The notes beneath the pieces are model-generated. The model was not told the origin of the DNA. It saw only the letters and a list, made by a program, of their open reading frames with translations, and ran no database searches. The position numbers and the translations under genes were made by a program. Shown here piece by piece: positions 1 to 24,335 of a DNA stretch of 24,335 nt (position 1 is its first letter; each line of letters opens with the position of its first letter). The stretch is from the NCBI GenBank assembly GCA_043822305.1, contig JBDRBU010000103.1:1-24335 (forward strand), in the 5' to 3' direction. This DNA is from Candidatus Firestoneibacteriota bacterium (GTDB lineage Bacteria > Oederibacteriota > D2-FULL-39-29 > JBDRBU01).

Positions 1-141
1 TCTTGATAAGATACTACGGTTTTATTGTTGTAGATGAGTGGCAGTTTTTGGGGTTTTATTGTTGTAATAGTGACATTTAATAGTGGTTTTTTGAGGATTT
101 TATCGCTGTAAATTAACAAGGTTTTATTGCTGTAAATAACA
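1..141 (-). mobile_element. Terminus of a DDE transposon (Tn7-like; IS21/IS481-type not excluded); the body lies left of the window
   Basis: The minus strand from 141 reads TGTTATTTACAGCAATAAAACC. Four direct copies of TACARCRATAAAAYC lie at 120-134, 96-110, 52-66 and 18-32. The TGT coincides with the point where ORF 124-504 runs into CYLQQ-stop. Confidence 0.7.
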
Positions 142-504
142 TGAGCAAATAAAACCTGTCTCCATATCCCTTCCAGCGTCTTGTATAGTAGAAAAATTTT
201 TTTTAAATAATTGTCTATACTCTTGTTCTCCAACAGTTGTTTTTATCCAATCTTTTCTTAATTCTTCTAACTTTTCCATTAACAACTTATTTTCTTTTAC
301 TTCACTTTCTGCTATTATTGTAACTTGTGATTTATCTAATTGAATCTCTCCATAAATAGTTTCGACTTTTATTTTATCCTTATCTGAATAAGTAATATCA
401 CCCCTAACTTCCTGCCCGTCTTTTAAGCGTATTATCTCCCCTAAACTTATAGCAGGAGAAAAAACAAAACATATTACAGTAATAACAATAATGCTTTTTT
501 TCAT
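124..504 (-). pseudogene. Secreted hypothetical protein, probably 3'-truncated by the transposon insertion at 141
   Basis: AGGAGG RBS; signal-peptide-like N-terminus (MKKSIIVITVICFVFSPAISLG); small beta domain IRLKDGQEVRGDI; the last five codons and the stop are encoded by the putative transposon end. Confidence 0.6.
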
Positions 505-602: not shown

Positions 603-1100
603 TTAAAACCCAAATTTCCTTTTAGGCTTTTCTGGTGGTTCTAATAGTCTATGTATTTTATTTATTTCCATAAAAACAACTTTGAATTGTTTATCATGTT
701 CTTCTAATTTCTTTTTTATATCATCATGCGTAGATAATATTTGTCTTAATCTTGTGAAAGTCCTCATTATTTGGATATTTACTTGTATTGCCCTTTCGCT
801 ATTAAGAACTGATGAAAGCATTAAAACACCATGTTCTGTAAAAGCAAATGGCCTCTTTCTAAGTCCCAACCTGATTGAATTGGAAGTCACAATTTGTGAC
901 TTCCAATTATTCATTTCTTCTTTTGTTAATTGAACCATAAAGTCAGGCGGAAACCTTTTTATATTCCTTTTAACCGCTTGATTTAACACTTTTGTTTCTA
1001 CTCCGTAAAGTTCTGCAATATCTCTATCCATCATTACTTTTAACTCTCTTATTTGATATATTTTACTTTCTATTCTTTCCTGTGGAATTAAATCTGGCAT
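603..1100 (-). CDS. ORF6N domain DNA-binding protein
   Basis: Motifs IYQIRELKVMMDRDIAELYGVETKVLNQAVKRN..RFPPDF and PFAFTEHGVLMLSSVLNSERAIQVNIQIMRTF, with a C-terminal KRKFGF; AAGGAG RBS. Confidence 0.9.
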   Translation of the reverse strand: MPDLIPQERIESKIYQIRELKVMMDRDIAELYGVETKVLNQAVKRNIKRFPPDFMVQLTKEEMNNWKSQIVTSNSIRLGLRKRPFAFTEHGVLMLSSVLNSERAIQVNIQIMRTFTRLRQILSTHDDIKKKLEEHDKQFKVVFMEINKIHRLLEPPEKPKRKFGF

Positions 1101-24192: not shown

Positions 24193-24335
24193 ATTACGGT
24201 TCTTCAGGTTTGATTGTAGAAAATTTATTTAATATTTCTACCTTTGCCTGAAGCCTCCTTTAATTTGAATTTATCCTAATTTAAGGTTAGGATATTGACC
24301 TTTTTACAGTTCAATTCTTCACTGTGTATTTTATC

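Follow-up and report, generated by a model that had tools for sequence, protein, structure and literature searches.

A CA-3′ tip is typical of DDE transposons, and such a tip with a near first site and co-oriented further sites is the common design at the ends of elements whose DDE transposase works with an AAA+ partner. TGT/CA-3′ tips followed by several subterminal sites occur alike in Tn7-like elements, the IS21 family, phage Mu and the Tn552/Tn5053 group. Tn7-like elements usually use fixed or guide-defined sites, with random-target pathways existing in Tn7 itself, and the ends of Mu (L1–L3 and R1–R3) show a TG tip, several unevenly spaced sites and near-random insertion. Several direct repeats lie close to the ends of Tn916-like elements, which enter varied AT-rich sites; in recombinase systems of this kind, the core sites differ from the arm sites. 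For Tn7-like ends, the available text of PMC8649781 names arrays of three to four sites as the uniting feature, with the outermost site at a median of 12 bp from the boundary. For IS21, the available text of PMC10122671 describes ends with two or more direct repeats at a distance of 23 bp, an indispensable terminal CA, and insertions with 5-bp duplications and no clear target preference; it places a longer spacer between L1 and L2 at the left end of Mu, and its authors stress the likeness of IS21 to both Mu and Tn7.

The stretch of DNA analysed here (the window, 24,335 nucleotides) is contig C103, taken from its first base, of a genome bin of 125 contigs and 2.15 Mb. We conclude, with a probability of roughly 0.8, that positions 1–141 are the outermost 141 bp of a transposable element, with several transposase sites arranged behind a TG(T)...CA tip, and we infer from this layout an enzyme of the group of DDE (retroviral-integrase-fold) transposases that comprises IstA of IS21, MuA of Mu, TnsB of Tn7 and those of Tn552/Tn5053. 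Such a true mobile-element boundary would be missed by annotation pipelines; it explains why the contig ends where it does, and why one open reading frame here and one on a second contig (C105) finish in element-derived codons.

Three junctions at one boundary

The assembly breaks at repeats, with overlaps of 141 bases. A bin-wide comparison of contig ends yielded 47 groups with a common 141-mer, from which it follows that the genome is riddled with repeats; insertion sequences abound in it. C103 and C105 begin with 141 bases that are 100% identical and diverge exactly at 141|142, and nowhere else in the bin is this 141-bp end present. Given an assembly that breaks at 141-base overlaps and two contigs that start with the same 141-mer, the sequence is a repeat whose last base is position 141, the A of a plus-strand ...ACA-3′ (minus-strand TGT); a repeat boundary at 141|142 is expected to yield just such a contig, with its start 141 bases ahead of the divergence.

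A third junction comes from run X1, an unrelated sample and the only public run that holds part of the stretch. Its contig (247 nt, at a depth of only 2.5) matches positions 19–141 at about 91% identity, with 11 substitutions and one insertion. Beyond 141|142 it continues for 23 nt that are unlike the window, and inwards of position 19 it is again unlike the window, so that the similarity stops just inside site 4 (Table 1). The flanks from position 142 onwards, which begin TGAGC in C103, CAATA in C105 and CCATA in the X1 contig, are mutually unrelated. The junctions number at least two in this genome and one in another sample. The original prediction had placed a transposon boundary behind a minus-strand TGT at 141, with the body outside the window; three junctions that share one boundary bear this out, and a real mobile-element end whose body lies off the contig is well supported.

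The region's place at the edge of a contig, in a metagenome bin that is fragmented, could also suggest an assembly artefact or a chance repeat, with no mobile element involved. This is extremely improbable in view of the identical 141-mer on two long contigs with clean divergence, the copy of about 91% identity with the same boundary in another sample, and a site count far above chance. C103 and C105 were also considered as the two sides of one simple insertion and rejected: their flanks show no duplication (TGAGC versus the complement TATTG), and each flank contains the 5′ portion of another gene, directed towards the element. It is conceivable that both contigs stem from a single copy whose ends are perfectly inverted over 141 bp or more, with flanks that were later rearranged.

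The shortest contig in the bin measures 2016 bp, and an overlap with the end of a further contig exists for just four of the 47 shared 141-mers; most collapsed repeats of the genome are likewise absent from the bin. With most collapsed repeats missing and all contigs at or above 2016 bp, the absence of the element is uninformative about its size.

The remainder of the window is chromosomal housekeeping, encoded throughout on the minus strand: gap, pgk, lipoyl synthase, pyruvate:ferredoxin oxidoreductase, heterodisulfide-reductase-like genes and formate–tetrahydrofolate ligase. Positions 1–1200 contain no promoter, terminator or Rfam feature of note.

Terminus and site array

On the minus strand, positions 141 to 135 spell the terminus TGTTATT, and four co-oriented 15-bp sites on the same strand lie between 8 and 124 bp from the tip (Table 1). 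Their invariant core, obtained by repeat search and alignment, is TACA.C.ATAAAA.C. The degenerate motif TACARCRATAAAAYC, with at most one mismatch, has four matches in the 24,335-base window, all of them within 18–134 and on the minus strand, where 0.02 are expected by chance; none of 100 shuffles reached four. Across the 2.15-Mb genome, 28 places lie within two mismatches of a site, six of them in the two copies of the end and the other 22 scattered.

Table 1 Features of the element end, its junction and arrays with a matching unit in other contigs
Feature	Position	Strand	Remarks
Terminal 141 bp of the mobile element	1..141	-	Extends leftwards off the contig; conserved functional part about 19-141
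Terminus, 5′-TGT on the minus strand, ...ACA-3′ on the plus strand	139..141	-	Three junctions break here
Site 1, TACAGCAATAAAACC	120..134	-	Starts 8 bp from the tip
Site 2, TACAGCGATAAAATC	96..110	-	24 bp after site 1 (start to start)
Site 3, TACAACAATAAAACC	52..66	-	44 bp after site 2 (start to start)
Site 4, TACAACAATAAAACC	18..32	-	Innermost; 34 bp after site 3 (start to start)
First five flanking bases, TGAGC	142..146	.	Target duplication according to the original prediction
Small secreted-type ORF, 126 aa	124..504	-	Last five codons and stop supplied by the element end
ATACAGCAATAAAACC arrays	L009:1485-1531, L010, L013:3226-3288, L014:4374-4436, L015:3-65		

Re-reading of the sequence, together with the repeat search and the alignment, reproduced all coordinates, motifs and spacings first proposed for the end, as well as the remark that a reading frame crosses the TGT. 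The further proposal that the sites are stepped by multiples of 10 bp survives in part: spacings of 24/44/34 bp are confirmed in the window, but there are only three of them, and the X1 relative has 45 bp in place of 44. The inserted base that makes this difference speaks against a strict 10-bp rule.

Six of the eight listed X1 substitutions, and the one-base insertion (behind position 75), fall in the 29-bp spacer at 67–95. Site 2 carries none of the eight, and site 3 carries two (G53A and T60C), at positions where the genome’s own sites differ and to letters that site 2 uses. This pattern suggests selection on the sites, as judged from few changes on one low-depth contig in a comparison that covers sites 2 and 3 and the spacer, sites 1 and 4 and the tip falling outside it and three of the 11 differences, near the ends of the aligned piece, being unlisted.

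If the end works as its layout suggests, transposase subunits would bind the four 15-bp sites, and the one on site 1, the presumed binding site that positions cleavage, would bring the active site to the ...ACA-3′ end at 141. The inner sites would help to build the paired-end complex, after which the freed 3′ end would be joined to staggered target positions, with a predicted duplication of 5 bp.

On the other side of the junction, the flank at 145–158 reads AGCAAATAAAACCT, close to an inverted copy of site 1 with one base added, and forms a 10-bp perfect inverted repeat with 119–128. Its score was reached or exceeded in 13 of 300 shuffles, and the resemblance is probably due to chance; a remnant of an earlier end, or a target preference, would be alternatives.

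Genes at the insertion points

The C105 flank encodes a DUF4062 domain, as found by profile search, and aligns at 74% identity to residues 12–135 of P0002. This protein is among 46 longer homologues, mostly proteins of about 480–500 aa that combine DUF4062 with HATPase_c_4. Homology stops at the junction, where nine element-encoded codons lead to a stop. The gene on C105 is truly cut by the element end, at about residue 131–136 of about 491. In a tblastn search of the bin, the remaining 350 or so residues of this gene were not found and only paralogues were returned, the best of these a full-length one on C78 with about 50% identity. Because the bin lacks whatever lay beyond the insertion in the cut genes, a simple insertion is indistinguishable from an insertion accompanied by an adjacent deletion or inversion.

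In the window, ORF 124–504 consists of 121 native codons followed by TGT TAT TTA CAG CAA TAA from the element. It matches no Pfam family, and a word-based search found only the ORF itself. A full HMMER search returned 21 proteins that cover only its first 60–83 or so residues, so that residues 84–121 have no covering homologue in either the word-based or the full HMMER search. That the element had inserted into a gene, as originally proposed for this ORF, applies to the C105 copy, which truncates a protein of about 491 aa; for ORF 124–504 an interruption is at most possible, its residues 84–121 being without a homologue. A 64-aa paralogue of the first half of the ORF, with about 80% protein identity, is encoded at G000 C118:23374-23556 (L003:1505-1699); it ends at the point from which ORF 124–504 runs on for 60 residues more, without a homologue.

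Next to the insertion, and outside the element, positions 603–1100 (minus strand) encode an ORF6N-domain protein (KilA-N/Rha-like DNA-binding domain, E = 2e-33). Genes of the ORF6N type are frequent in mobile DNA.

Relatives and class of the element

Among the 125 contigs of the bin, no element body, opposite end or transposase linked to the end was found, and with one side of each insertion to go by, no target duplication was seen. By shared-end comparison and short-word blastn, none of the contigs joins the 141-mer from its inner side, and the sites occur at no contig end apart from those of C103 and C105. A junction scan of the bin gave no contig end with a TGT junction beside the predicted duplications, a scan of all contig ends gave no other array of at least three sites of a related motif, and a motif scan gave no other site cluster in the genome. 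Outside the bin, 60 relatives searched by DNA had no match to the end, and in 98 other genomes of the phylum the terminal 22-mer, at three or fewer mismatches, had six single matches versus four for the control, none accompanied by a second site. A two-site pattern found no end in the GTDB genome contigs (one match, a coding repeat), eight loci in the JGI metagenome contigs, none of which is a transposon end (five tandem 16-bp arrays, one 25-bp tandem inside a phage-like ORF and two coding repeats), and nothing in the IMG/VR viral contigs. A TGT-plus-site pattern gave 50 loci in the viral contigs, none with more than two matches within three mismatches; in two of them a second match lies 125 and 387 bp from the first. 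Plasmids and phages had no blastn match to the end, the motif strings had no relevant occurrence in the papers searched, and the motif is absent from the supplement of PMC8649781. The site array provides a ready-made probe for a transposase whose ends are without relatives in the large public collections covered here.

In its behaviour, the element resembles an insertion sequence of low target specificity; neither its body nor its opposite end and genes were assembled into the bin. Three unrelated flanks make low target specificity a simpler reading than a special target selector, and such low specificity points to an insertion sequence or a Mu-type element rather than to a site-specific or RNA-guided relative of Tn7. 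We lean the same way on account of the insertion inside a gene and the presence of at least two junctions in a 2.15-Mb genome crowded with insertion sequences. Four sites spread over 124 bp, and the abrupt loss of X1 similarity just inside site 4, lean instead towards a larger element.

An insertion sequence of the IS21 family (istA plus istB, about 2–2.6 kb), the collapsed contig of which was dropped from the bin, is a possible though tentative identification. Sites 1 and 2 lie 24 bp apart behind ...ACA-3′, close to the 23 bp between the paired repeats of IS21 elements (L1/L2 and R1/R2, for example in IS5376), and the terminal CA, low target specificity and multicopy disruption of genes are likewise shared with IS21 as the available text of PMC10122671 describes it. 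The genome is full of insertion sequences, another IS21 member with two to three repeated sites per end among them, and with no contig in the bin below 2016 bp, a short collapsed repeat would be missing from it. By contrast, two further sites follow here at 44 and 34 bp inward, and the resulting array of four over 124 bp exceeds the usual two or three compact repeats. No istA or istB is linked to the present end, the only istAB pair in the bin has different end repeats (AAATTCCATAG), and a compact element with a gene nearby would not be expected to lose similarity to the X1 relative directly inwards of site 4.

The istAB pair belongs to a complete IS21-family element at G000 C19:172-2314, joined to C71. 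Its istA product has 472 aa and contains an rve domain, for which no second gene was found in the bin; its istB product has 252 aa. The ends of this element carry AAATTCCATAG repeats about 17–23 bp apart, in three copies at one end and two at the opposite one, and follow the same repeated-site principle as the present end with another motif. These genes were considered as the source of the present end and rejected, since the end repeat differs.

The present end fits the description of IS21 ends (PMC10122671) and that of Tn7-like ends (PMC8649781) alike, as far as the available text of these two sources goes. The original prediction had favored a Tn7-like or CRISPR-associated transposon, with TnsB sites and a non-canonical insertion site that implied an unusual target selector, a reading that we consider doubtful. 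The arrangement does match the array set out in the available text of PMC8649781, where a TGT tip and a short terminal segment precede three or four co-oriented sites within about 90–150 bp, at least three of them near the tip and spaced by no more than 75 bp: here, 5′-TGT ... ACA-3′ stands at a true boundary, fixed at 141|142 by three junctions, the first site begins 8 bp in, and four spaced sites fall within 124 bp. In addition, X1 similarity stops abruptly inside site 4, as it would where an end abuts variable cargo. However, no fixed or guide-defined attachment site was found, the three flanks being unrelated and at least one insertion lying in mid-gene, and at least two junctions occur in a single 2.15-Mb genome. 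The site core is 15 bp long, whereas Tn7 sites measure roughly 20–22 bp, neither tns genes nor an opposite end are seen here, and no end with the site pair appeared in the GTDB, JGI or IMG/VR scans. Profile searches of the 125 contigs did not find PF09299 (the C-terminal domain of TnsB/MuA), PF06527 (TniQ) or PF08722 (the N-terminal domain of TnsA), and PF09299 turned up in none of 99 genomes of the phylum either; this weighs little against a Tn7-like element given that its body is unassembled and that the profiles were silent in all 14 control genomes.

Since Tn7 itself has random-target pathways, the unrelated flanks lower the claim of Tn7 without excluding it. It is quite improbable that the end derives from a Tn7-like (possibly RNA-guided) lineage with diverse in-gene insertion and without a relative in 185,579 species genomes, the JGI metagenomes or IMG/VR. 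If this were nevertheless the case, such insertion would imply a target-selection module unlike those based on TnsD/TniQ, TnsE or Cas guidance.

The end of a Mu-like transposable prophage is unlikely, and so, to the same degree, is an origin from one of the other members of the DDE group. The TG tip, the several unevenly spaced sites and the seemingly random insertion all recall Mu ends, but two fixed junctions in one small genome would be unusual for a prophage, the present end has no linked phage genes, and the phage and viral collections searched yielded no relative. The Mu-transposase C-terminal domain (PF09299) was also not found in this genome, and a profile search found it in none of 99 genomes of the phylum, a weak objection because the control genomes were silent as well.

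Several direct repeats close to an end, and varied AT-rich insertion sites, would also be expected if the sites were arm-type sites of a tyrosine recombinase at the edge of a Tn916-like integrative/conjugative element with loose target choice. A motif 8 bp from a TGT/CA tip is instead the layout of DDE transposon ends, core sites would differ from arm sites in such a recombinase system, and the three flanks have no core sequence in common, all of which makes this origin very unlikely.

Several other repeats were encountered in the searches. Contigs from marine metagenomes contain intergenic head-to-tail arrays of three to about ten units, with a 16-bp unit, ATACAGCAATAAAACC, that includes the exact 15-bp site of the element (Table 1). 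These arrays lie between ordinary chromosomal genes and show no transposon features; the match is probably a coincidence of an AT-rich motif. Within the bin, the last 141 bases of the window (24195–24335) form the tip of an insertion sequence other than the present element and of high copy number; its end, GGTTCTTCAGGTTTGATTGTAGAAAATTT..., closes at least ten contig ends (C25, C77, C91, C92, C93, C102, C103, C104, C105 and C106), among them the right end of C105, and a sister family of insertion sequences (GGTTCTTCAGGTTCTATTGTAGAG...) closes about ten more. The right ends of C28 and C107 each carry three copies of AAAAATCGATAC with a 35-bp period, a tandem or dispersed repeat.
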